Source: an uncultured Candidatus Saccharibacteria bacterium (GTDB taxonomy: Bacteria > Patescibacteriota > Dojkabacteria > J137). Taken from it: 64,000 bases of DNA. The position numbers and the translations under genes were made by a program. Below, piece after piece: positions 6,792 to 56,042 of this stretch. The notes under the pieces are model-generated. The model did not search any database. It had not been told where the DNA came from and saw nothing but the letters and a program-made list of their open reading frames with translations. Position 1 is the stretch's first letter. The number at the start of each line of letters is the position of its first letter. The stretch spans positions 5,614 through 69,613 of the forward strand of contig CAYTGI010000001.1 in the NCBI GenBank assembly GCA_964437465.1, in the 5' to 3' direction.

Positions 6792-7859
6792 ATGGTAGAA
6801 GTAGTAAAACACATAGAAACAACTATAGATAGTAATCTTAAAAAACTTGAACAAGATATTTATGATTTAGGTATAGATGCAAGTCCGCTTTCTAATTTCA
6901 TTGATTCTAAAATATTTTGTGATTTTAACGATCTCTCAAAACAAGGAATAATATCAATGTTGAGAACAGGTTTAGAAAAAGGGAGTATTAAAGAAGTCAT
7001 GGATGTTATTTTTAATCCTCAAGAACCAAGTCAAGAGAGGTTAGAAATCTATAAGAGAAGGCATAGGGAAATTTATGAGCAGAGAGCTATTGAGCTGGCT
7101 GACATGATAATTGATGGACATGAAACTGTCATTTTAAGAAGTGGAATGTACGGTGGAAAATCTACCTTGGCTACAGCTACTGAGAAAGAATTGAAAAAAA
7201 GGGGATTTACTTCCTCCGTTCTTATAGCAGGTATTTTGGGAGATGATTTTACTACTGCTAGAGCTTACGAAGCTGATGAAGGAGTTTTGCCAGCAGAAAT
7301 GGTTTTACCAGATACGATTGAAAACATTAAGTTTAAGATTCTAGAAGATAGAGGAGATAACGAAAATCATGTTGTGTATTTTGATGAATTTTCGTTTGTA
7401 GATGAAGGGACTGTTAGAGAAATAGTGAATTTTTGTAGTGAGGAAGGTATTAAATTAATTATGGCAGGTTTAGATGCTGATTATCTAGGTCGTGAACTTC
7501 CTACGATGTCTAGGTTTCGTAAGGAATGCACTCATGTTGAAGAGTGTTTTTCTTTTACGATGAATATGGATTATGACTCAGTTGAAAATGGTGAACCTAT
7601 AGGAACACATACAGCTAGATATGTGCGTCTTCCAGAAGGTGGCTATGTGTTAGATGTAGCGAGTCTTCCTCTAGAAGTTTCGAAAGAAAAACCATACATA
7701 CTTTATATTCCTGTAGCAAAGCAACATCATATATCGGGTATTCTTGAAGGGCATCCAGTTCTTGAATGGATAAATTCATATCCAGAGTTTATACCACAGG
7801 AAAGAATGCAACGAGTTTTTCAATTTAATTTGGAGTTACCCTATCAAGAAGTGGCTTAA
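6792..7859 (+). CDS. Thymidine kinase-like protein with an N-terminal extension of about 110 aa
   Basis: TK motifs from about residue 110: P-loop SGMYGGKSTLA, YFDEFSFV (compare IDEAQFF), MAGLDADYLGRELP (compare AGLD.DFRGEPF); C-terminal Cys ribbon is degenerate. Confidence 0.55.
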   Translation: MVEVVKHIETTIDSNLKKLEQDIYDLGIDASPLSNFIDSKIFCDFNDLSKQGIISMLRTGLEKGSIKEVMDVIFNPQEPSQERLEIYKRRHREIYEQRAIELADMIIDGHETVILRSGMYGGKSTLATATEKELKKRGFTSSVLIAGILGDDFTTARAYEADEGVLPAEMVLPDTIENIKFKILEDRGDNENHVVYFDEFSFVDEGTVREIVNFCSEEGIKLIMAGLDADYLGRELPTMSRFRKECTHVEECFSFTMNMDYDSVENGEPIGTHTARYVRLPEGGYVLDVASLPLEVSKEKPYILYIPVAKQHHISGILEGHPVLEWINSYPEFIPQERMQRVFQFNLELPYQEVA

Positions 7860-8197
7860 GCCTCGATTGGATCTTCTGGGGGTAAAACTCTAGTAATAAT
7901 ATTCCAATAACGGTTGTTCTCCTCATTTATCGTTATAGTATAAACTGTTTGGATTCGGCTAGAAGTCAAGTTGAAAAAATCCATTAAATGACTATTTATT
8001 TGAGCAGACAGCTCGTCTCTTGAGCTTATGTTTGGAATTTTTTTAAGAATGATTTCAATCTTGGGGTTACTATCATGAGGATCATAACGGTCTGATATCT
8101 CACTTTTAATTTCATCAACAATTCTATCTATCCAAGTTACTTCTAAATATTGCTCGTTGAAATCATCATAATTATCATCGTTGAAATCGTCACTCAT
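7856..8197 (-). CDS. Hypothetical small highly acidic protein (113 aa)
   Basis: N-terminus MSDDFNDDNYDDFNEQ; net charge about -14; no known motif. Confidence 0.45.
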   Translation of the reverse strand: MSDDFNDDNYDDFNEQYLEVTWIDRIVDEIKSEISDRYDPHDSNPKIEIILKKIPNISSRDELSAQINSHLMDFFNLTSSRIQTVYTITINEENNRYWNIITRVLPPEDPIEA

Positions 8198-8754
8198 TTT
8201 TTCTTTTTATTCTCAGAATCTTTAAATACTTTACTACCAACGGCATCCATCTGTCCTTGGTACTTACTTTTTCTCTCAGGTGCTCCGTATGGACTTTCAG
8301 CAGGGAATCCCATTCTTCCAAAAACTAACTGACAGATTCTTCTTCCAGCTTCAAGTTTAATCGGAACAGAGTTTGCGTTATACAGCTCTAAAGTTATTCT
8401 ACCCTTAAATCCAGGGTCAACCCATCCAGCGTTTTGAATAAATAGTCCCATTCTCCCAATTGAACTTCGTCCCTCAACAAAAGCAATTAAGTTATCTGGT
8501 AATTCAATATATTCCATAGTTGTTCCGAGAAGGAATGTATGGGGCTCAATTATAATTTCTGTTTTTGTAATTTTTTTATATTTAACTGGATTATTTAAAT
8601 CTATAACTTTCGATCTTCTATTATCTACAATTAAGAAATTATCTCCTAATCTACAGTCAATTGAGGCAGGTTGAATAGATTCATCTGTAATTGGTCTACA
8701 GACTAATTCGCCTGAAAGCAGCATTTTTTTAATTGTTCCGTCAGATAAAATCAT
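8194..8754 (-). CDS. dcd: dCTP deaminase
   Basis: 186 aa; N-terminus MILSDGTIKKM..., and a glycine-rich NAGWVDPGFKG motif of the dCTP deaminase/dUTPase fold. Confidence 0.9.
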   Translation of the reverse strand: MILSDGTIKKMLLSGELVCRPITDESIQPASIDCRLGDNFLIVDNRRSKVIDLNNPVKYKKITKTEIIIEPHTFLLGTTMEYIELPDNLIAFVEGRSSIGRMGLFIQNAGWVDPGFKGRITLELYNANSVPIKLEAGRRICQLVFGRMGFPAESPYGAPERKSKYQGQMDAVGSKVFKDSENKKKK

Positions 8755-8755
8755 A

Positions 8756-9373
8756 TCAATCTATTGATTCTAAATAATCTGTAATTGGTTTAGAAAGGTT
8801 CCTCGTCAATTCTAAGAATTTACCAATATTTCCCTCAGCATTTTCGTCATCTATTATGGTTGGAACCTCATCAACGAAAATGAGTATTCGCCTATCTTCA
8901 GTTTCTCCCTCTTCTAGTTCAACACCACTATCTCCAACTTGTTTACTCCCTAAATATATTTTATGTGTGTATTGTTTTTCATCTTCGAATGTGATCGCTA
9001 CTAAAACATGACCTTCTTCTGCGTTTTCAAAGGACCGAGTAACGTCAAACCCTACTTTTGCAAGCTCACCTTTTAATTGAGTTCTAAAAGTTTCATCTAA
9101 AAAGTATTCGTAGACATTTGTGTCAACCTCAATAAAAGGTTCGAAAATGTATGCACCATCAGTCAAGTTAGGAACAAAAACAACACTAACTCCATCATCA
9201 ATGCTAAATTCAAACTTTGGTGGTAAAACTAGCCTTCCATCAATATCAATAGGTACCATTGTGAGTGGTTGATCTTCTAAAAATCTTCTCATTTCTTCTA
9301 GAATATCTTGTGCAGTTATTTGTTCATTTGAAGGATCGAAATCATCATCGTAATTGTGTTTTTGATCAGACAT
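8756..9373 (-). CDS. Hypothetical acidic protein (205 aa)
   Basis: N-terminus MSDQKHNYDDDFDPSNEQ resembles that of the 113-aa acidic protein; no known domain. Confidence 0.45.
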   Translation of the reverse strand: MSDQKHNYDDDFDPSNEQITAQDILEEMRRFLEDQPLTMVPIDIDGRLVLPPKFEFSIDDGVSVVFVPNLTDGAYIFEPFIEVDTNVYEYFLDETFRTQLKGELAKVGFDVTRSFENAEEGHVLVAITFEDEKQYTHKIYLGSKQVGDSGVELEEGETEDRRILIFVDEVPTIIDDENAEGNIGKFLELTRNLSKPITDYLESID

Positions 9374-11296: not shown

Positions 11297-11370
11297 TGTT
11301 TAATACTACATTAATAGTATATAAAAACAAACTTTTTTAATGATATTATGAAAATAATTATAGTATTTTT

Positions 11371-41391: not shown

Positions 41392-41667
41392 ATGAGGAAA
41401 GAGCTTGAAAGAAAATTGAGAGATAAAAAACTTAAAGTTGCTCCTGTTGATCAGGAAACATCGGAACTTATCAAAGAGCTAGCGAAGCTAACCGATGAAT
41501 ATCCATCAGATATAATTAAAGCAGCGATATTAATGCTATCAAAATCTCTAGGACATCAGGTAGTTTTAAGAGACCCTGATTCTGACTGGGAGTTAATTAT
41601 TAATGGTTTTAGGAGTTATAAAAGTAAATACAAGTTAAATCCAGGAAGTAATGAGCGATCAAGATAA
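41392..41667 (+). CDS. Hypothetical protein (91 aa)
   Basis: Open frame only. Confidence 0.35.
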   Translation: MRKELERKLRDKKLKVAPVDQETSELIKELAKLTDEYPSDIIKAAILMLSKSLGHQVVLRDPDSDWELIINGFRSYKSKYKLNPGSNERSR

Positions 41668-42079
41668 CTCCAAAGTCTCAGAAGTTGATGATCTAATTGA
41701 TGATTATGATCTTATTGATGAAGAATTATTAGAAGAGGAATTTTCAGATGGATATGAAGAAGGATATGAGGCAGCAAAAAAAGAAGTTACAGGTGAGTTA
41801 GAACCTAGAGCTGAAACTATAGCTGAAAGTAACTCAGATTCTATTTACTCAAAAAGAGAAGACACAAGAAGCCGATTAGCTATAATCTATACTGTTCTTA
41901 CTTTTATAATTTTCTTTTCAGGAATGCTTATTGCTGTTGTAGATGGATTAGCTAGAAATGTAAGTATAATTGAAAACCTTGAAGTAATTATTCCGTTGAT
42001 CTCCGGAGTTTTCTTAGGAACTTTAGGTTTTGTCCTTGGATATTACTTCCGAAAGGCAGAAAAGGATGATGTTGTATAA
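41651..42079 (+). CDS. Hypothetical acidic protein with a C-terminal membrane anchor
   Basis: Acidic N-terminus (DDLIDDYDLIDEE) and two C-terminal TM helices. Confidence 0.35.
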   Translation: MSDQDNSKVSEVDDLIDDYDLIDEELLEEEFSDGYEEGYEAAKKEVTGELEPRAETIAESNSDSIYSKREDTRSRLAIIYTVLTFIIFFSGMLIAVVDGLARNVSIIENLEVIIPLISGVFLGTLGFVLGYYFRKAEKDDVV

Positions 42080-42085
42080 TCCATC

Positions 42086-42514
42086 ATGTCGCTACAAATA
42101 TTAATCCCTAAAACATCAAAAAAGGTAAAACTACCATTTTTTGGGACATCAGTTAACGCTGGCTTCCCAAGTCCTGCTGATGACTTCGTAGAACGTAAGC
42201 TTGACTTGAATGAATATTTAATAAAGCATCCAGCCGCAACTTTTTTTGTTAGAGCAACAGGGGATTCAATGAAAAACATAGGGATTCATTCAGGAGATTT
42301 ACTTATTGTTGATAGATCCCTTGATGTTGTAGATGGAAAAATTGTTATAGCTGCAATTGACGGTGAATTTACTGTAAAAAGAGTAAAAAAGATTAATGGG
42401 GAGTTATTTCTTGTTCCTGAAAACGAGAACTATAAACCGATAAAGATAGATAGTGAGGATGAGTTTCAGATCTTCGGTGTTGTTAAGAATGTTATAAAGA
42501 ATTTGTTAAATTAA
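42086..42514 (+). CDS. umuD: UmuD-like S24 peptidase (LexA C-terminal domain fold, no HTH)
   Basis: ATGDSM Ser motif, a Lys in FTVKRVKK, a candidate Ala-Gly cleavage site (VNAGFP); 142 aa. Confidence 0.75.
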   Translation: MSLQILIPKTSKKVKLPFFGTSVNAGFPSPADDFVERKLDLNEYLIKHPAATFFVRATGDSMKNIGIHSGDLLIVDRSLDVVDGKIVIAAIDGEFTVKRVKKINGELFLVPENENYKPIKIDSEDEFQIFGVVKNVIKNLLN

Positions 42515-42650
42515 ATAAATATATATATTAGTGTATTTTTATAGCTGATTCTAAGATGATGGATGTAATGGCAGATGACAATTATGATTATGATAATTCA
42601 CCTGAAGAGAATGATCATGAAAGGCTAAGAGATCTTCTTGAAGGTGAAGA

Positions 42651-43457
42651 TTAATATAAAATAGTTAAAAACTTTAATTTTACTGCATCCTTTCCCACAA
42701 GCAACTCTTTAGTTATTTCTATTTTTTCTTTTTTCCGTAGGTATAAATACCTATTTAATACACATACCTGAGCAGCGTTTCTCATAATTACTGAAGCAGG
42801 ACAATGTACATATCTGGTAGGGTTTGCAGAAGCTTTGGCTCTGAAGTAGTTTGGAGCATAATAAGTTGTTAATCTTGTTTGTAACTCATTAAAAAAATCT
42901 AATGGACTGAGTTGAAAAGGCATATTCTCTAAAAGTTTATTAACTTTACCTCCTTGCGAAGAGATAATTCCATGCTCTCTTAAAATCTCAAGATAATAAT
43001 CATCTGACAACATACTAAATCTGAAGCCTGAATTTCTAAGCGGGTCAACAATAAGCGCTGCTTGATGTCCATAGTTTCCCGCAAACAAATGAATATGTCG
43101 TAAGAATGTACTTACTTCACCTGCGTAACTATCTGACACCTGGTTCAAAACTCCTTCTGTTCTAAATTCTTCAATAAAGGCAGGACCTAAAACAAGCGCG
43201 GCAGACATTGCATTCTGCCATCCAATATTATATTTAGATATCCAGTTATCTGCTACTGCAATCATACCTACAATTTCTCCTGTTAATCGTCTTACTATTT
43301 CATTACGATCTCCTGGGTAGTAAGTGTAATGAGCACCATTTTCTGTAAGAGTTCTAATATCCATACTCGGAACAACACCTTTTGACAAAGCATCATCTAA
43401 ATACTTTCTTTTTGAACCTTCATAGTTATCTGGCTTTTCCTCAAAAATGTCAGGCAT
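42651..43457 (-). CDS. Hypothetical protein (268 aa) inserted on the opposite strand between umuD-like and the Y-family polymerase gene
   Basis: Open frame with no recognisable motif. Confidence 0.4.
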   Translation of the reverse strand: MPDIFEEKPDNYEGSKRKYLDDALSKGVVPSMDIRTLTENGAHYTYYPGDRNEIVRRLTGEIVGMIAVADNWISKYNIGWQNAMSAALVLGPAFIEEFRTEGVLNQVSDSYAGEVSTFLRHIHLFAGNYGHQAALIVDPLRNSGFRFSMLSDDYYLEILREHGIISSQGGKVNKLLENMPFQLSPLDFFNELQTRLTTYYAPNYFRAKASANPTRYVHCPASVIMRNAAQVCVLNRYLYLRKKEKIEITKELLVGKDAVKLKFLTILY

Positions 43458-43488
43458 ATTGATATAATTAAGCTAGAAATTTTAACAG

Positions 43489-44766
43489 ATGAAACAAAGG
43501 GTATTTGGTTTAATAGACTGCAACAACTTCTTTGCTTCCTGCGAGCGTGTATTTGACCCTAAACTGATTAGAAAGCCTATTGCGATTCTTTCTAACAATG
43601 ATGGTTGTATTATCGCAAGATCATCGGAAGTAAAAAAAATGGGGGTGCCTATGGGTGCCCCTCTTCATGAGTGGAAAGATTTGATTGAGCGAAATCATGT
43701 AAATATTTACTCGGCTAACTTTCACCTTTATGGAGATATGTCAAATAGAGTTATGCAAATCTTAGAGAAGTTTTCTCCTGATGTTCAAGTTTATTCAATA
43801 GATGAGGCGTTTATTGACTTAACTCACGTTAAAACAGGAGATCTTTATGAATATGGCAAAAAGATTAGGGATACAATTATGAAATGGACAGGACTTCCGG
43901 TTTCTGTTGGAATAGCTTCTACTAAAACACTGTCTAAAATTGCTGTTGAACATGCTAAGAAAAATGAAGAAGATCAAGGTTGTTATGTTTTAGATTCTGA
44001 AGAAAAGATTAATAACTATTTAGACACACTTCCAGTTCAAGAAATTTGGGGAATAGGGTACAGGCTTTGTATGAGACTAAACGGACAGGGAGTATACACT
44101 GCTCTTGATTTTAAAAAGCTAGATGAGCGAAAAGTTAGACAAGACATGAGTGTGACTGTTCAAAGAACTTTAAATGAATTAAATGGAATTCATTGTATCG
44201 AAGGAGTTGAAAATAAGGAAACTAAGAAACAGATAATTAGTTCTAGATCTTTTGGAAGAAGGGTCACTTCTTTGAGTGAACTAAAAGAGTCGGTTGCAAG
44301 TTACGTAGCGAGAGCTTCTGAAAAGCTAAGAAGACAGGGTTCTGTCGCAAGTTTTATAGGAGTTAGTGTAAGAACAAATAAATTTGCGAAAGATGAAAAA
44401 CACTACCATAATTCATACTATATGAGCCTAGAAACACCAACAGATTATTTAGCAGATCTAACTAAAGCTGCACACTTTTGTTTAGAACAGATTTATAGAA
44501 AAGGAGTTGTCTATAAAAAATCAATGGTACAATTAGGAGGATTAGTCCCAAGAGATAGTCAAAAAATTAATATGTTTGATCCTGAGTATGATACTGAGAA
44601 AAATAAGATAGTTATGGGGGCTTTTGATCAAATTAATAAAGAGTGGGGAAGTGGAACTATTAAAACTGCCGCGATGGGGAATAAGCAAACATGGAAAGCT
44701 AAAAGCAATCTAAGAAGTCCAAGGTATACGACTAGTTGGGAGGAGATAGTGAAAATTAAGAATTAA
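43489..44766 (+). CDS. Y-family DNA polymerase (UmuC/DinB)
   Basis: IDCNNFFASCERVFDP and SIDEAFIDLT motifs. Confidence 0.9.
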   Translation: MKQRVFGLIDCNNFFASCERVFDPKLIRKPIAILSNNDGCIIARSSEVKKMGVPMGAPLHEWKDLIERNHVNIYSANFHLYGDMSNRVMQILEKFSPDVQVYSIDEAFIDLTHVKTGDLYEYGKKIRDTIMKWTGLPVSVGIASTKTLSKIAVEHAKKNEEDQGCYVLDSEEKINNYLDTLPVQEIWGIGYRLCMRLNGQGVYTALDFKKLDERKVRQDMSVTVQRTLNELNGIHCIEGVENKETKKQIISSRSFGRRVTSLSELKESVASYVARASEKLRRQGSVASFIGVSVRTNKFAKDEKHYHNSYYMSLETPTDYLADLTKAAHFCLEQIYRKGVVYKKSMVQLGGLVPRDSQKINMFDPEYDTEKNKIVMGAFDQINKEWGSGTIKTAAMGNKQTWKAKSNLRSPRYTTSWEEIVKIKN

Positions 44767-46306
44767 TAATTACCTATAAACTTCCTTGCCTCTAAAATTT
44801 CATCCTCAACTAACTCATGACCACCTTCATGAATAAATGTTGACACCTCTGCAGCTCTTTCAGAAAGTAGTCGCTCTAGACGGTCAATTTCGTCAGGCGT
44901 TCTAAGATAAATATCTTTTTTACCGCTGGTAATAAAAATATTAGTTCCAAAGAGATCTATTTCTTCAGGTTCAAAAGGGATCATTGGATGAAATAAAATT
45001 GCATTTTTTACTATTCCTGGATTTTTAAGAATAAAACTAAGCGCAAAATTAGCTCCATTTGAATAACCTACAAAAATTGCTTTATCTAAATTAACTTTAT
45101 CTTTCATTTTTTCTAAAAAGCTTTTTAACTTATCTACTTCAGAAAAAATACTTTCCTCTCTAAAAGTACCATCAATATTTCTTTCAAAAAATCTTAATAA
45201 GCCTTCTTCATTAATATTTCCTCGAAGTGACAGAATATTTGCCTTGTCGTCTAAACACATAGCAAGAGGAATTAAATCTCTTTCATTTGCTCCAGTTCCA
45301 TGAAAAAGAATTAAGGTTTTGTCTGAATCGTTATTAATGAATCTATAGGTAAATTCAATTTCTTCTTCCTCTTCATGATTCTCTTCATTAGTAATTATTG
45401 GGTTAAGCATCGCCTCGTAATATTTTCTATTGGGTTCGTACTGTGAGGGTAGTTTTAAATCTTCACCTAAAGTCTCTATTGATTCATCTATTAGCATTCC
45501 TGGTGGATCTGTAGCTATCTCAAAAAGAATTCCTCCTGGTTCTTTAAAATAGACTGAATGAAAATAATTTCTATCTATTACAGGTGTTGGACTCAAATTA
45601 TCCTTTTCAATTTTTTTTCTTAATTCAATTTCTTTAGTATCATCTTTAGCTCTAAAGGCAATGTGGTGAACTGTACCTGCACCTTGGATTCCTTCTGGCC
45701 ACCCCTTCATTTCGAATATATCAATTACGTTACCAATTTTGTGATTCTTATCTTTAAATCTTGTATGAAAGCCTTCAGAATCGACTTCTTCAAAATCAAA
45801 GAATTTTTCTAAAACTTTTTGAGTTGGTCCTTTAAGACCTACTGAAAGTTCTGCTCCAAAGAATCCTCTAATTGCATATTTCTTGTCTACTATTTTGTTC
45901 CAAATATCAATATTTTTATCTTGATCATTCATAACAAGCTCAAGTTGGAGTCCATCAAAATCGTAAAAGGTCAAAATTTTATTACCAAACATCTCTGAAG
46001 GTTGTTCGTGTTTTACACCATGCTTTTGTAATCTTTCTATCCAAAAACCCATAGATTCTTTAGGAATAGAAAACATTATTTTAGTAACTTGTCCTATGCC
46101 TCTCATTCCCGTTCCAGCATCTTCGAAGGGAAAAAGCGTCATTAAAGTACCGGGGTTTCCTTTTTTATCTCCAAAGTAAAGATGGTAAACATCAGGAGCA
46201 TCAAAGTTAACAGTTTTTTCACAAACCTTAACCCTAAGACATTAGTATAAAAATCATAAGTCTTTTGAGCATTGGAACTGATTGTTGTTATGTGGTGAAT
46301 TGACAT
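44763..46306 (-). CDS. Fusion of a two-domain VOC (glyoxalase/ring-cleaving dioxygenase, MhqA/MhqE-like) protein with a phospholipase/carboxylesterase (MhqD-like alpha/beta hydrolase). The N-terminal ~55 codons are in a different frame (frameshift in a T6/A6 run at 46214-46219)
   Basis: Track ORF 44763..46142 begins in mid-VOC domain. Upstream, in a frame offset by one nucleotide, the minus strand reads MSIHHITTISSNAQKTYDFYTNVLGLRFVKK, and after the A6 run continues TVNFDAPDVYHLYFGDKKGNPGTL straight into MTLFPFEDAG. VHHIAF and LILFHGTGANERDL...GYSNGA motifs. Confidence 0.65.
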
Positions 46307-46363: not shown

Positions 46364-46686
46364 ATTTTGATACAAGATACTTAACATTTTCAAACTCGAA
46401 AATATGAAAATCTGTATTTAAACTGATTATTTCTTTATTTGGTCTAATCATATTAATTTCACGTTCACCCTTTTTATGTACAATTCAATTTAAAAGAATT
46501 TTTCTTTTTTGAGCAAAACTACCTGGAATAAAATCAACAACTCTTTTACCTATAATCTCATCCTCATTGTAGCCGGTGAGTGTTAATGCCTTTGGGCTGA
46601 CCCAATCAAAAGTTTGAGAGAAGGTATCCACTAATATCCGGATCTTCAATATACTCACTAGCTTTATTTAATAACTCTTTATTCAT
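46364..46686 (-). pseudogene. Decayed third tandem PAS-domain paralogue (two or more frame disruptions)
   Basis: Three frames together read MNKELLNKASEYIEDPDISGYLLSNF / DWVSPKALTLTGYNEDEIIGKRVVDFIPGSFAQKRKILLN / VHKKGEREINMIRPNKEIISLNTDFHIFEFENVKYLVSKI, which is co-linear with the two intact paralogues. Confidence 0.55.
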
Positions 46687-47020
46687 CAACAATTTTTGCG
46701 ACAATATATAAAACTCTATCTAAAGTAAAGATTCTAAATTCAGCTTCGATAGGAAATTCTTCTCCTTTTGAATTTTTAAAAGTTATTTTCCTTTGCCCTT
46801 TTTTAGATGAGATCAAATCAAGAAGGATTTTTCTAGATTCGTTTGGAGTTGTTGTTAGGTAATCATAAACTTTCTTAACTTCTAATTCTTCTTTAGAACA
46901 GCAAAACATATCTAGAGCTTTATCACTAACATACTCGAATGTGGCTGAGTACATATCAATTATAAAATCTGGTTCTGTAAAAAATTCATTTCCTTTTTCA
47001 AATACTTCTTTTTTAAGCAT
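46679..47020 (-). CDS. Single-domain PAS protein
   Basis: 113 aa; paralogue of 47026..47376 (PDFI(I/V)DM...WVS...IV(A/S)KI). Confidence 0.6.
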   Translation of the reverse strand: MLKKEVFEKGNEFFTEPDFIIDMYSATFEYVSDKALDMFCCSKEELEVKKVYDYLTTTPNESRKILLDLISSKKGQRKITFKNSKGEEFPIEAEFRIFTLDRVLYIVAKIVDE

Positions 47021-47025
47021 AGGTA

Positions 47026-47376
47026 TTATTCTATAGTTACTTTTTCAATTATTTTCGAAACTATATACATAGTATTTTCATGAGTAAATGTTTGAAATTC
47101 AGTTTTAAGAATACTTTCACCACCATCTTTTCGATTAATCTTTAATTCTCTTTCTCCAGAATCGTTTACAATTCTATCTACTACTTCCTTTCTCTTTTCA
47201 AAAAAAGTTCCTTTTAGAAATTTTGTTGCTTGTTGACCTACTAACTCACTCTCTTCGTATCCACATAATTCCAAAAGTTTTGGACTTACCCATTGAAGTG
47301 TTACGTCAAACATGTCGACTATAAAGTCTGGGGAATCTGAAAGTTCTTTTGCTTTTGAGAGTAGGTCTTCTTTCAT
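47026..47376 (-). CDS. Single-domain PAS protein
   Basis: 116 aa; paralogue of 46679..47020. Confidence 0.6.
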   Translation of the reverse strand: MKEDLLSKAKELSDSPDFIVDMFDVTLQWVSPKLLELCGYEESELVGQQATKFLKGTFFEKRKEVVDRIVNDSGERELKINRKDGGESILKTEFQTFTHENTMYIVSKIIEKVTIE

Positions 47377-47406: not shown

Positions 47407-47480
47407 TGGAGCCGGAGGGAATCGAACCCACAACCTCATGAATGCCATCCATGCGCTCTAGCCAATTGAGCTACGGCCCC
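47407..47480 (-). tRNA. tRNA-Ala (anticodon GGC)
   Basis: Manual fold gives a 7-bp acceptor stem with G3:U70, D-arm GCTC/GAGC, anticodon loop AT-GGC-AT and T-loop GGTTCGATTCC; no encoded CCA. Confidence 0.85.
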
Positions 47481-50599: not shown

Positions 50600-51472
50600 A
50601 TGTCAGATGAACCCCAGATCGATGAGGATCAGCCTCACTTACATACTCTAGAACTAGCTGCAGTTCATAAAGATCCAATAGAAGCATTAAAAGAAGGTGG
50701 GAAAGTGATATTAGATTCAAGAAAATACAATCTAAGTGTTCGTTTACAAATAGATAGTACTGTTATTGTTAAGTTTGAGGAACTTGCTGATCTCTATGGT
50801 TCAACTACTGATGTTGAACTTGAGAAATTTTATGCCTATTTAATATCCTGCACATATGATCTAATGGATATTTTTGGAGAAACAGGATTTACTGTAGAAA
50901 GAGATCATCCACTGAGAATACATTTATTTTTTGGTGGATCAACTACGGGCGAATTAGATAAGAAATTACTTCATAGAAGGAAAATAACTGATATCGTTCT
51001 TATGAGAGCAGAAGTTGAAAATCTTAAACCATTCCCTCTAATGTTTAAGCTTGCAAGAAGTCTTTACATGTCTAATCAGATAAAGCTTGCAGAAGATAAA
51101 GCTGAAGAAAAGGATGAAAGGCCTCCTGCAATTCACTTTTCTAATTATGTTCTTGATATTATTGCTCTGTTAGCTTGTAAAGCAAAATTCTTTGAGTTTG
51201 AGTTAAGAGATATTCCAAGATATAAACTAACACCGAGAACTTGGGATAGATTGAAAAGTGAACTTCTTGGTAATCCTACAAGGACTGAGTCTGGAGAGGA
51301 TTATACAAACCCTTTATTAAATTATGTCTTTAGTCATCTTGATAAATTACCTTATAATGAGTTTATGGGATTCTTTAGAAATATTGTAAATAAAGATCCT
51401 GAATATCTCTTTAAACTATTTATCAGCAAAAAATCTAGTGATAACCGAAGACCTAAGACCGAAGAATCTTGA
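50600..51472 (+). CDS. Hypothetical protein (290 aa); tandem paralogue of 49611..50504
   Basis: See the previous feature. Confidence 0.4.
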   Translation: MSDEPQIDEDQPHLHTLELAAVHKDPIEALKEGGKVILDSRKYNLSVRLQIDSTVIVKFEELADLYGSTTDVELEKFYAYLISCTYDLMDIFGETGFTVERDHPLRIHLFFGGSTTGELDKKLLHRRKITDIVLMRAEVENLKPFPLMFKLARSLYMSNQIKLAEDKAEEKDERPPAIHFSNYVLDIIALLACKAKFFEFELRDIPRYKLTPRTWDRLKSELLGNPTRTESGEDYTNPLLNYVFSHLDKLPYNEFMGFFRNIVNKDPEYLFKLFISKKSSDNRRPKTEES

Positions 51473-55019: not shown

Positions 55020-55445
55020 ATGACAGATTCACTAGATGAAGAAACTTTAGATATTTCTAAGGATTCAGCTATCTTATATTCTGAAATATTTGGAGAAGGA
55101 GAATATGAAGATGGGAAAACATTAGCTTTACATGCAGTAAACTTACTAAAAAGTAGAAGTGGAAGATATGAAAACATAAATTCAGAATTAAGGACTGAAT
55201 TGATTATTAAAATAGGATTACTTTCTGAAATGATGGATTTTGGAGATAATAGAGCTGAAACAGTCAGACAAGGATTCATTTCTTATCTACTTAGTCTTGA
55301 GAAAGATTCACTATCAGACTACGCTCCTCACGCTGCAATTGAGTATATAACTATTTTTATTGATAGTAAATTTTTAAAGAAACTGCCTAAATTCTTGAGA
55401 GATTCTCGAACAGGTGTATTGAATTTAATCGAATTTGAAAGTTAG
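55020..55445 (+). CDS. Hypothetical protein (141 aa)
   Basis: Open frame only. Confidence 0.35.
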   Translation: MTDSLDEETLDISKDSAILYSEIFGEGEYEDGKTLALHAVNLLKSRSGRYENINSELRTELIIKIGLLSEMMDFGDNRAETVRQGFISYLLSLEKDSLSDYAPHAAIEYITIFIDSKFLKKLPKFLRDSRTGVLNLIEFES

Positions 55446-55504
55446 TTGGTTATTTTAAAAAGAAAGATATTTAACTATAAATGATTTGGTTTAAAGTTTA
55501 TGAA

Positions 55505-55691
55505 GGAGAGATGGCCGCTAAAGAGATTACATCAGAGCGAAGCGATGATAGTAAGATCTTTGTCCTGCGAAGCTAGTAAAGTAGGAAGTGGTTTAAGGTG
55601 CATCGCCTCTAACATGCTCCCGATTATATCGGGGCGCAGGTTCGCCACAGACATGTGTCGTGTCGCCATGATGAATATCATGGTGAATCCT
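55505..55691 (+). other. tRNA-Ser-like element with a 70-nt insertion in the D-loop, a 41-nt insertion in the T-loop and no 3' acceptor strand (pseudo-tRNA or intron-bearing tRNA remnant)
   Basis: Carries the same blocks as tRNA-Ser at 55956, namely GGAGAGATGGCCG, GTGGTTTAAGGTGCATCG, GCAGGTTCG and AATCCT. The anticodon/variable region is 30 nt long, the same as in the intact gene, but its sequence differs. Confidence 0.45.
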
Positions 55692-55700
55692 ATAACAACA

Positions 55701-55954
55701 ATGTACTATATTTAGCTACTAAGACAAAGAATAAGCAAATCTACACTGGTTATACTTCTAATTTAAGAAGGAGAGTAAAAGAACATAAATCTGTCTAAGT
55801 AAAGTTTACAAGTAAAAGATTACCAGTTGAACTTATTCATTACTAAGCCTATCTACTAGAGACAGATGCAAGAAGAAGAGAAAAATATCTCAAATCAACA
55901 GAAGGAAAGAAGATGCTAAAATTACAAATAAGAGACTTACTCCAAGAAATTTGA
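55701..55954 (+). pseudogene. Decayed small GIY-YIG nuclease gene (about 84 codons spread over three frames)
   Basis: Frames read MYYI / VLYLATKTKNKQIYTGYTSNLRRRVKEHKSV* / VKFTSKRLPVELIHY* / DARRREKYLKSTEGKKMLKLQIRDLLQEI*. Together these match the GIY-YIG core (YxYIL...IYxGxTxNLxxRLxEH, RxPxxLVY) and C-terminus; ends 2 nt before tRNA-Ser. Confidence 0.55.
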
Positions 55955-55955
55955 A

Positions 55956-56042
55956 GGAGAGGTGGCCGAGTGGTTTAAGGCGCATCGTTGGAAACGATGT
56001 TTATGTTTATTCATAACGCAGGTTCGAATCCTGTCCTCTCCG
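55956..56042 (+). tRNA. tRNA-Ser (anticodon GGA), class II with a long variable arm
   Basis: Acceptor GGAGAGG/CCTCTCC, anticodon stem CATCG/CGATG with loop TT-GGA-AA, variable-arm hairpin and T-loop TTCGAAT. Confidence 0.85.

Follow-up and report, generated by a model that had tools for sequence, protein, structure and literature searches.

Two small, very acidic orphan proteins are encoded on either side of a dCTP deaminase gene in the 64-kb stretch of DNA analysed here (hereafter the window), and a third, much shorter acidic open reading frame (ORF) lies downstream of umuD. The original prediction ascribed to all three a common N-terminal motif, [DN]-Y-D-[DY]-[DF], likened this to the DDDIPF tail of the single-stranded DNA-binding protein SSB, and compared the overall acidity with that of DNA-mimic proteins. 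This locus raises the question of whether these N-termini are alike in the order of their residues or in their composition, and of what such segments could do in a Dojkabacteria-like (CPR) bacterium.

Two acidic orphan genes in an operon with dcd

The dcd gene (8194-8754, minus strand; Pfam DCD, E 1.4e-49) encodes a conserved enzyme and lies between two orphan genes. The first gene of the operon, w205 (8756-9373, minus strand), encodes a 205-aa protein with a net charge of -31 that starts MSDQKHNYDDDFDPSNEQ; a single nucleotide separates its stop codon from the start of dcd. The last gene, w113 (7856-8197, minus strand), encodes a 113-aa protein with a net charge of -14, starts MSDDFNDDNYDDFNEQ, and is translationally coupled to dcd, whose stop codon overlaps the w113 ATG in the sequence ATGA. 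The coordinates, strands and translations of both orphans are exactly those originally given, and w113 and w205 are real genes that form one minus-strand operon with dcd. Of all ORFs in the window that reach 100 aa, 65 in number, w205 ranks second and w113 fourth in acidity, with charges per residue of -0.15 and -0.12, respectively, against a window median of -0.03. Promoter and terminator scans returned background levels only. Shine-Dalgarno sequences are absent from this genome, so that start sites and ribosome-binding sites cannot be judged in that way.

Positional orthologues occur only in three Dojkabacteria-type contigs, each time abutting dcd. The reported adjacency is thus a constant feature: the w205 stop is at most 4 nt away from the start of dcd in all four genomes with a w205 homologue, in a tiny sample of four plus two orthologues and one window. 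A w113 homologue overlaps the dcd stop in two of these four and is missing from the other two, and w113 is therefore dispensable. Both orphans evolve fast, with 32-33% identity across relatives compared with 89-94% for Dcd, ThyA and DnaK (89% between Dcd and its copy in the related locus L101). Elsewhere, the genes beside dcd encode EF-G, ThyA or small Cys-rich proteins, and no dcd-coupled acidic genes analogous to w113 or w205 were found in other taxa.

Neither orphan protein matched an entry in Pfam, PHROG, NCBIfam or PDB. The wider set of searches (Pfam, PHROGs, NCBIfam, PADLOC, PDB sequence search and tblastn against phages) was likewise empty or sub-threshold, and fold searches with the orphans gave generic matches only. 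Polyubiquitin matches of a two-sequence w113 profile contained no significant individual stretch and were discarded. The IMG name 'RAD52 pathway protein', carried by the L101 homologue of w113, was not reproduced; no profile or fold match of the Rad52/Rad22 type was obtained. Paralogy of w113 and w205 was also rejected, as BLASTP aligned the tails only (E=0.39) and hhalign of the family profiles gave a probability below 1%. Two other orphan acidic genes of the relatives (L102, 6896-7420 and 7417-7992), flanked by ackA and the gene for 5-formyl-THF cyclo-ligase, showed no kinship in hhalign. A literature search on acidic partners of dCTP deaminase, or on acidic tails in CPR bacteria, retrieved nothing relevant.

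Composition and residue order of the N-terminal tails

The N-terminal tails form a distinct class of segments, as had been proposed. That of w205 comprises residues 1-20 (MSDQKHNYDDDFDPSNEQIT; 9314-9373, minus strand), as supported by low pLDDT, composition and a phmmer alignment with P0003 that begins only at w205 residue 21. That of w113 comprises residues 1-17 (MSDDFNDDNYDDFNEQY; 8147-8197, minus strand), as supported by composition and low pLDDT. With pLDDT below 50 for w205 residues 1-16 and at or below about 50 in w113 residues 1-18, both are predicted to be disordered and would offer the accessible location expected of a short linear motif. In the w205 tail, acidic residues make up 32%, basic ones 5% and aromatic ones 11%; the corresponding values for w113 are 44%, 0% and 25%. 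Overall, such tails span about 12-26 residues, are rich in Asp, Tyr, Pro and Asn, and nearly lack Lys, Arg, Gly and Leu; relative to background, Asp is enriched 4-fold, Tyr 3-fold, and Pro is enriched as well. The same bias is seen in the tails of four relatives, which had not been selected by the original prediction: Asp makes up 23% of residues vs 6.2% (P=4e-6), Tyr 11.6% vs 3.8% (P=0.005) and Pro 13% (P=5e-4), while Lys and Arg are depleted (P=0.014). N-termini that are both acidic and aromatic occur in 2 of the 65 ORFs of the window vs 4 of 986 ORFs from other taxa.

A six-frame scan of the 64 kb finds the sequence NYD[DY] at just three places, always among the 12 N-terminal residues of an ORF, namely w113, w205 and the 32-codon ORF w32. 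Shuffling of whole proteins predicts 0.007-0.02 N-terminal matches, and no shuffle reached the three observed. The three Asp/Asn/Tyr/Phe-rich acidic N-termini are therefore genuine and far from chance. A second shuffle, restricted to the first 20 residues, preserved the local composition of the tails; none of its P values is corrected for the post-hoc choice of the motif. Under this regime some 3-mer was common to all three tails in 5.4% of shuffles, and the summed pairwise score had P=0.015. Taken in pairs, P was 0.02 for w113-w205, 0.11-0.31 for w113-w32 and 0.21-0.26 for w205-w32. Residue order is thus marginally non-random once local composition is kept (P about 0.02-0.05, uncorrected), and the original motif claim stands as an enrichment over whole-protein shuffles but not as an order that departs clearly from random. 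A common ordered motif across the tails of w113, w205 and w32 is at best weakly supported.

Could a discrete motif near residues 8-12 nevertheless be recognized by one common partner, such as SSB, DnaK or the polymerase? Besides its restriction to these three N-termini and the order similarity of w113 and w205, such a reading can draw on a near-identical register (Tyr at residue 8, 10 and 10) and on the QYDDP kept in the L101 homologue of w113. Moreover, the two non-homologous tails within one genome score higher (z=2.4 and 1.2) than orthologous tails across genomes (0.8 and -0.9), a hint of co-evolution toward one receptor. However, the definition of the motif is post hoc, and once composition is fixed only one pair out of three reaches significance. 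It is also absent from all three w205 homologues, which start MANEPDFYEYPIYP, MIDDFDSDSLPD and MSDSDPEPKYSS. The orthologous tails as a whole (MANEPDFYEYPIYP, MIDDFDSDSLPDNVDPDDLY, MSDSDPEPKYSS, MKNDFEQYDDPEY) do not retain it, the L101 homologue of w113 keeping only QYDDP, and the order of residues is not significantly similar between orthologues (P=0.25 and 0.86), as expected if the tails are fuzzy and driven by composition. In 945 kb of other loci it was found nowhere except in the w205 family and in one unrelated ORF. In w113, furthermore, DDNYDDF spans the junction of a 24-bp tandem duplication (8154-8192, minus strand; units DDFNDDNY and DDFNEQY), visible as a direct repeat of 8154-8168 and 8178-8192 with 14 of 15 bases identical at a spacing of 24 nt, and as a 9-residue insertion relative to the L101 homologue in a MAFFT alignment. 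We thus consider a discrete recognition motif improbable. The likeness of the three tails is one of composition and not of a conserved motif, which makes it a modest curiosity and no new interaction signal.

Short reading frames with acidic N-termini around umuD

The third tail belongs to w32 (42556-42654, plus strand), a 32-codon acidic ORF located 41 nt downstream of umuD, with the sequence MMDVMADDNYDYDNSPEENDHERLRDLLEGED. It does carry the motif and does lie between umuD and the polymerase gene, as predicted, but it is separated from the latter by a further gene, of 268 aa and on the other strand (42651-43457), and the 3' ends of the two convergent reading frames overlap by 4 nt. A TAG at 42529 marks the upstream limit of the w32 frame. 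Asp and Glu make up 41% of w32, against a mean of 5.8% (sd 5.2%) in 296 six-frame ORFs of 25-45 aa; this is about 7 sd above the mean, and the next-highest ORF reaches 24%. Gene callers predict w32 on both the NCBI and the Logan contigs, which derive from the same sample. As such an extreme outlier among small ORFs, w32 is probably coding.

Conservation, which the original prediction proposed as a check, is not seen for w32. No relative carries it, and its sole other copy comes from the same sample; Pfam gave no match at E up to 10. When metagenomes were scanned with the 268-aa neighbour, no match emerged, and a scan with dinB yielded only relatives of 38-56% identity, all without w32. Because dinB lies next to umuD in 11 of 12 relatives, the segment bearing w32 and the 268-aa gene is a recent, lineage-specific insertion; no convincing flanking repeats and no break in composition were detected there as insertion scars. 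On these grounds w32 might not be a functional gene but either the decaying 5' fragment of a former acidic-tail gene or a chance ORF in the intergenic region left behind when the 268-aa ORFan inserted between umuD and dinB. We regard this as a real, if doubtful, possibility: it would suit an ORF of merely 32 codons in a genome where ribosome-binding-site evidence is unusable, but a chance ORF would not show so high a content of Asp and Glu. A remnant of a real gene would share that composition, so the objection bears on the chance-ORF version only.

A fourth member of this group is possible. The 142-aa protein w142 (41651-42079, plus strand), whose gene ends 6 nt before umuD, begins with some 60 residues that are acidic and aromatic in character (MSDQDNSKVSEVDDLIDDYDLIDEELLEEEFSDGYEEGYE); its first 20 residues, with a net charge of -7, are the third most acidic in the window. 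Its hydrophobic C-terminus resembles two transmembrane helices, as read off the sequence rather than computed, and its Pfam matches, all sub-threshold, are to families with two transmembrane segments.

Known acidic tails and the possible role of the segments

If the tails are alike in composition, they may simply be neutral by-products: unconstrained, low-complexity N-terminal extensions produced by AT-biased mutation and replication slippage, tolerated because they are soluble, and without a partner. The essentially random order of their residues, the recent 24-bp slippage duplication in w113 and the very fast evolution of the proteins that bear them all fit this explanation. The codons for Asp, Asn and Tyr are AT-rich and the genome has a GC content of 32%, so that the composition could be partly mutational. 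Mutation would not, however, readily exclude Lys and Arg, as Lys is AT-rich and accounts for 7.2% of the proteome, nor enrich Tyr 3-fold while leaving Phe, Ile and Lys, which are just as AT-rich, without enrichment. Purely neutral disordered segments are usually depleted in aromatic residues. Tail composition is also kept in orthologues whose sequences are otherwise scrambled, the folded parts being merely 16-34% identical. Neutrality is accordingly on the unlikely side. Quite improbable, too, is that w205 and/or w113 act as a whole as DNA or nucleotide mimics that inhibit a DNA- or dNTP-handling enzyme, with the tail as just part of an anionic surface. Small size and very high negative charge density are common to these proteins and to Ocr, ArdA and Ugi, and their charge density lies within the range of known mimics; the tight linkage to dcd would agree with such a function, and fast evolution with an arms race between inhibitor and target. 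Known mimics, though, fold into arrays of carboxylates and are usually encoded by phages or plasmids, whereas w113 and w205 belong to a chromosomal housekeeping operon with no phage or defence context. Neither has sequence or fold similarity to a known mimic or inhibitor, and of the predicted resemblance only the compatible charge remains.

We tentatively favour the view that the tails are fuzzy, polyanionic and aromatic disordered docking arms, in which composition and not a sequence motif is under selection. By analogy, the acidic tails of SSB and of T7 gp2.5/gp4 could best illustrate how they work: like the SSB DDDIPF tip, the tails described here are short, disordered and Asp-rich, with an aromatic residue. 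The proposed equivalence to the SSB tip itself fails. The SSB-Ct tip (consensus D-D-D-[IL]-P-F) is the extreme C-terminus and is tethered to an OB-fold ssDNA-binding domain, whereas the segments in w113, w205 and w32 occupy residues 3-17 from the N-terminus, continue into a folded domain or further sequence and, as tails, sit on alpha/beta orphan proteins rather than on an OB fold. The SSB and T7 tails are C-terminal and conserved in sequence, those described here N-terminal, internal and not conserved. In SSB and T7 gp2.5/gp4, the free carboxylate of the last Phe is required. The acidic runs of the tails all lack a following [ILMV]-P-[FYW], and a six-frame scan for endings of this type found none in a real gene. 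The acidic tails of SSB and T7 gp2.5/gp4 bind to basic surfaces that contact DNA, in competition with ssDNA (PMC3936761; PMC10359462); in SSB, the C-peptide binds where the protein's own OB domain takes up ssDNA (PMC3936761).

Other small acidic proteins offer partial parallels. DinI and the plasmid protein ImpC belong to the SOS response, are small, and act by binding RecA filaments and modulating the cleavage of UmuD; DinI is acidic and functionally tied to umuD, and w32, encoded just downstream of umuD, would likewise be a small acidic peptide with Tyr. DinI, however, is folded and has 81 residues, whereas w32 has 32 and neither relatives nor sequence similarity to DinI; ImpC precedes impA and impB in the impCAB operon. 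No DinI match was found at E up to 10 for w32 or for the two ORFs upstream of w32, a 91-aa frame and w142. In DinI, W71, W77 and F78, together with an acidic patch, contact the basic groove of RecA filaments (PMC9926225). Small acidic secretion-chaperone-like proteins of alpha-beta3-alpha-beta3-alpha type (CesT/SicP/YscB, SciW) are also among the closest known systems, membership of the CesT/SycE class being defined by an alpha-beta3-alpha-beta2/3-alpha fold with a significant structural match.

In the docking-arm model, the tails are carried by small, lineage-restricted, fast-evolving proteins; two of these, w205 and w113, have unrelated folded parts and share with dCTP deaminase both a transcript and translational coupling. 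The tails would change by rapid substitution and slippage, as in the w113 duplication, while selection preserved their composition. Each would act as a flexible polyanionic arm bearing aromatic residues and would make fuzzy contact with a basic surface on which a partner binds nucleotides or nucleic acids, in the manner of the SSB and T7 gp2.5 tails or of the acidic/aromatic patch of DinI, and the folded domain would supply the specific function. Both the binding and the choice of partner are what we infer: Dcd or adjacent thymidylate-pathway enzymes would be prime candidates for w205 and w113, and the RecA/UmuD/DinB machinery for w32 and perhaps w142. Docking on a Lys-rich Dcd C-terminus was considered and rejected, as this end is not conserved in relatives with w205 homologues (NKKKK, NKKEE, NDSKE). 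A bolder version, which we think very unlikely, would make the Asp/Tyr tails pseudo-ligands that mimic nucleotides or ssDNA and plug lineage-specific adaptors into one basic receptor site, coupling control of dCTP deaminase, and hence of dNTP supply, to control of RecA/UmuD/DinB mutagenesis in a CPR bacterium with a reduced genome. Co-evolution of the two tails of one genome with that receptor would then explain why likeness within a genome exceeds likeness between orthologues.

At present the main value of these findings is negative: the DDNYDDF likeness is a compositional effect, aided by a tandem duplication, and does not warrant annotation as a signal of the SSB or DNA-mimic kind. Binding of the tails to Dcd or to the SOS machinery, should it occur, would provide a first function for two orphan gene families fixed beside an essential dNTP enzyme. 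It would also represent a case of regulation by fuzzy acidic and aromatic arms in the almost unstudied CPR bacteria.

Acidic orphan genes beside dcd

The window (GC 32%) is a chromosome segment of a CPR/Patescibacteria bacterium, as judged from its housekeeping genes (dnaK, grpE, dnaE and pentose-phosphate enzymes, accompanied by type IV pilin-like genes), from its closest dcd relatives in MAGs labelled Candidatus Dojkabacteria (80% and 77% identity) and from synteny with L101, a JGI metagenome contig that is its best syntenic relative (Dcd 89%, ThyA 92% and DnaK 94% identical). The same evidence rules out a phage origin. According to Rfam and ARAGORN, tRNA-Ala(GGC) (47407-47480, minus strand) and tRNA-Ser(GGA) (55956-56042, plus strand) are the only RNA genes in the window, and gaps free of long ORFs lie at 50720-51438 and 55445-55956. 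Almost no gene is preceded by a Shine-Dalgarno-like sequence (AGGA at best in six; 58 gene starts, whole window), and this organism apparently initiates translation without it.

The two acidic orphan proteins that flank dcd, w205 (205 aa, 8756-9373) and w113 (113 aa, 7856-8197), are encoded exactly as in the original prediction, head to tail with dcd (8194-8754) on the minus strand. With a 1-nt gap between w205 and dcd and an ATGA overlap of the dcd stop with the w113 start, the genes are packed as is usual for co-transcribed, translationally coupled ones. Placement beside dcd recurs in relatives: in two Dojkabacteria MAGs (L002 and L003) and in L101, thyA and dcd are separated by a gene for an acidic protein of 194-204 aa, which ends either 1 nt ahead of the dcd start or in a 4-nt overlap with it. 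In L101, a 102-aa gene overlapping the dcd stop is a w113 homologue (BLASTP E 9e-6; common C-terminal Y-W-N-I), and a w113 counterpart is absent from L002 and L003. Identity between window and L101 is 32% for w205, 33% for w113 and 39% for the neighbouring thymidine-kinase-like protein, compared with 82-94% for the surrounding enzymes. Both w205 and w113 are real genes, evolving very fast.

The thymidine-kinase-like gene (6792-7859, plus strand), which overlaps w113 by 4 nt, 3' end to 3' end, encodes a P-loop protein that has about 110 extra N-terminal residues and resembles Pfam TK only weakly (E 4e-6, residues 116-240); it too is very fast-evolving, given the 89% identity of Dcd with the same contig. 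Dcd itself contains a 5-residue insertion, PYGAPERKSKYQGQ, in this clade and in one Saccharibacteria MAG (window 8194-8754, L002, L003, L101 and L039), most other relatives having PYxGKYQGQ.

Neither w113 nor w205 matched anything in Pfam, PHROG, NCBIfam, PADLOC, PDB sequences or phage records, and a word-indexed search across 5.8 billion proteins gave, for both, no hit but the query itself. With w205 as query, exhaustive HMMER searching of 1.84 billion representatives recovered a single relative, P0003 (204 aa, 34% identity, E 1e-19); the other relatives of w205 and w113 were found through synteny. The folded parts of the four w205-family proteins can be aligned and share the motif LGxxQ[VI]G as well as YLESID at the C-terminus. 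Outside their N-terminal Asp/Tyr-rich segments, hereafter tails, w113 and w205 show no kinship. In both Dojkabacteria MAG relatives (L002/L003), ackA and the 5-formyl-THF cyclo-ligase gene enclose two more orphan acidic genes, of 174/175 and 191/193 aa (the latter begins MIDEQNTNHYDDMFSVED; L102 6896-7992; L103 6668-7773). The window equivalent is a 75-nt gap (11297-11370), and hhalign found these genes unrelated to w113 or w205.

The w32 micro-ORF between umuD and dinB

The third tail belongs to w32, a 32-codon ORF that starts 41 nt past the stop of umuD (42086-42514) and was likewise reported correctly. Its end overlaps by 4 nt that of a convergent 268-aa ORFan (42651-43457, minus strand), followed by dinB (43489-44766). 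Since umuD directly adjoins dinB in 11 of 12 dinB-bearing metagenome loci, with an unrelated dehydrogenase between them in the twelfth, the spacer of ~975 nt (42515-43488) that holds w32 and the ORFan is a lineage-specific insertion into a umuD-dinB operon; no insertion scars were seen around it. Asp and Glu make up 41% of w32. Across the 296 ORFs of 25-45 aa read in six frames, their share averages 5.8% (sd 5.2%) and the runner-up has 24%, so that w32 stands well apart as the most acidic; because of this content it is probably coding, or a remnant of coding sequence, and not an ORF that arose by chance. It was predicted by gene callers in two assemblies, both of the same sample, and ribosome-binding sites can provide no evidence on its start because the genome is almost devoid of Shine-Dalgarno sequences. 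No relative of w32 was found in metagenome loci carrying dinB or in a metagenome scan with its 268-aa neighbour, for which family and metagenome homologues were also nil.

Just upstream of umuD, the 142-aa gene w142 likewise encodes an extended acidic, aromatic stretch at its start; the C-terminal segment after it is hydrophobic and, read by eye, looks like two transmembrane helices. At 44763-46306 (minus strand), the last base of a 54-aa ORF starting MSIHHITTISSNAQKTYDFYTNVLGLRFVKK is also the first of a 459-aa ORF (46142). The longer ORF has faint Glyoxalase and DLH matches, the start of the shorter one looks by eye like a glyoxalase/VOC-type N-terminus, and the two could be one frameshifted or split gene. 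At 46485-47376 (minus strand), three small ORFs of 57, 113 and 116 aa lie in tandem; they are paralogous, share the segment ...F[IV]VDM[FY]..T[FL].[WY]VS.KAL... and look like a small array of mini-PAS proteins, with weak PAS_9 matches in two of the three (Logan annotation, L105).

Composition and residue order of the tails

The three tails had been proposed to share a motif (DDNYDDF / NYDDDFD / DDNYDYD). NYD[DY] occurs three times across all six reading frames of the 64 kb, always within the first 12 residues of an ORF, whereas 0.007-0.02 N-terminal occurrences are expected from whole-protein shuffles. Because the motif was read off these same sequences, a fair null model keeps local composition. 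When only the first 20 residues were shuffled, some 3-mer was common to all three tails in 5.4% of trials, and the summed pairwise ungapped score was reached in 1.5%. In gapped local alignments with shuffled tails, only w113-w205 was nominally significant (P=0.02; w113-w32, P=0.31; w205-w32, P=0.26), and among the 45 tail pairs that were looked at, chance alone would yield one or two such values. The N-terminal enrichment thus stands against whole-protein shuffles, but residue order is weak once tail composition is kept. The robust signal lies in composition: Asp, Asn, Tyr and Phe abound in all three N-termini, and basic residues are absent.

Nor is the motif conserved in relatives. Tails differ among orthologues, both in the w205 family (MSDQKHNYDDDFDPSNEQ; MANEPDFYEYPIYPVDVV; MIDDFDSDSLPDNVDPDDLY; MSDSDPEPKYSS) and in the w113 family (MSDDFNDDNYDDFNEQY and MKNDFEQYDDPEY), and their order similarity lacks significance (P=0.25 and 0.86). 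Individual tails are 27-44% acidic, 0-9% basic and 9-25% aromatic; the remainder of each protein is 12-23% acidic. Four tails from relatives, which had played no part in selecting the motif, were pooled (69 residues) and compared with the window proteome: Asp (23% vs 6.2%, P=4e-6), Tyr (11.6% vs 3.8%, P=0.005) and Pro (13% vs 3.4%, P=5e-4) are enriched, Lys+Arg are depleted (2.9% vs 11%, P=0.014), and Glu and Phe show no enrichment. The tails are conserved in composition, not in sequence. Of the 65 window ORFs, 2 have an N-terminal 20-mer that combines two or more aromatics with a charge no higher than -5, compared with 4 of 986 ORFs in other taxa.

In the w113 tail, 24 bp are duplicated in tandem (8154-8168 and 8178-8192, with 14 of 15 bases in common), and the heptad DDNYDDF contains the junction of the two units. 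The duplication yields MS[DDFNDDNY][DDFNEQY] and matches a 9-residue insertion relative to the L101 homologue (MAFFT); slippage, in addition to substitution, therefore alters the tails. Four of ~74 window ORFs begin Met-Ser-Asp (gene starts 7856, 8756, 41651 and 49611), as do several orphan genes of L003 and L101, which by a rough estimate exceeds what positional amino-acid frequencies predict.

On the best-supported reading, the tails would be disordered, Asp/Tyr/Pro-rich N-terminal arms, selected for composition, on lineage-specific small proteins. Its main rival sees them as neutral low-complexity extensions of fast-evolving orphan proteins; mutational bias alone, however, does not account for their composition, because codons for Lys, Ile and Phe are as AT-rich as those for Tyr and Asn, yet these residues are not enriched. 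A discrete motif has one weak hint in its favour, namely that non-homologous tails within a genome are more alike than orthologous tails (z=2.4 and 1.2 vs 0.8 and -0.9; two genomes, post hoc). Both the proteins and the compositional feature are genuine, whereas the motif is not supported.

Known acidic tails and putative partners

The suggested likeness to the SSB tail is not supported either, as all three defining features fail (C-terminal position, I-P-F ending and OB-fold host). The DNA-mimic idea found no homology among known DNA-mimic families, and no match was obtained to the DinI family or to Rad52, the IMG label of the L101 w113 homologue. The tails belong to no described family. Known acidic/aromatic tails dock on basic surfaces that bind nucleic acids: in SSB, the C-peptide binds to the site for ssDNA on the protein's own OB domain (PMC3936761), and Trp/Phe residues and an acidic patch of DinI bind the basic groove of RecA filaments (PMC9926225). 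By analogy, the tails studied here may work like acidic docking tails. From this analogy and the conserved translational coupling, we infer that Dcd or the adjacent thymidylate enzymes would be the most plausible partners of w205 and w113; for w32, these would be RecA/UmuD/DinB. The sole concrete docking idea that could be checked, the Lys-rich C-terminus of Dcd, failed. Docking of the tails is proposed as a testable hypothesis for w205, w113 and w32.
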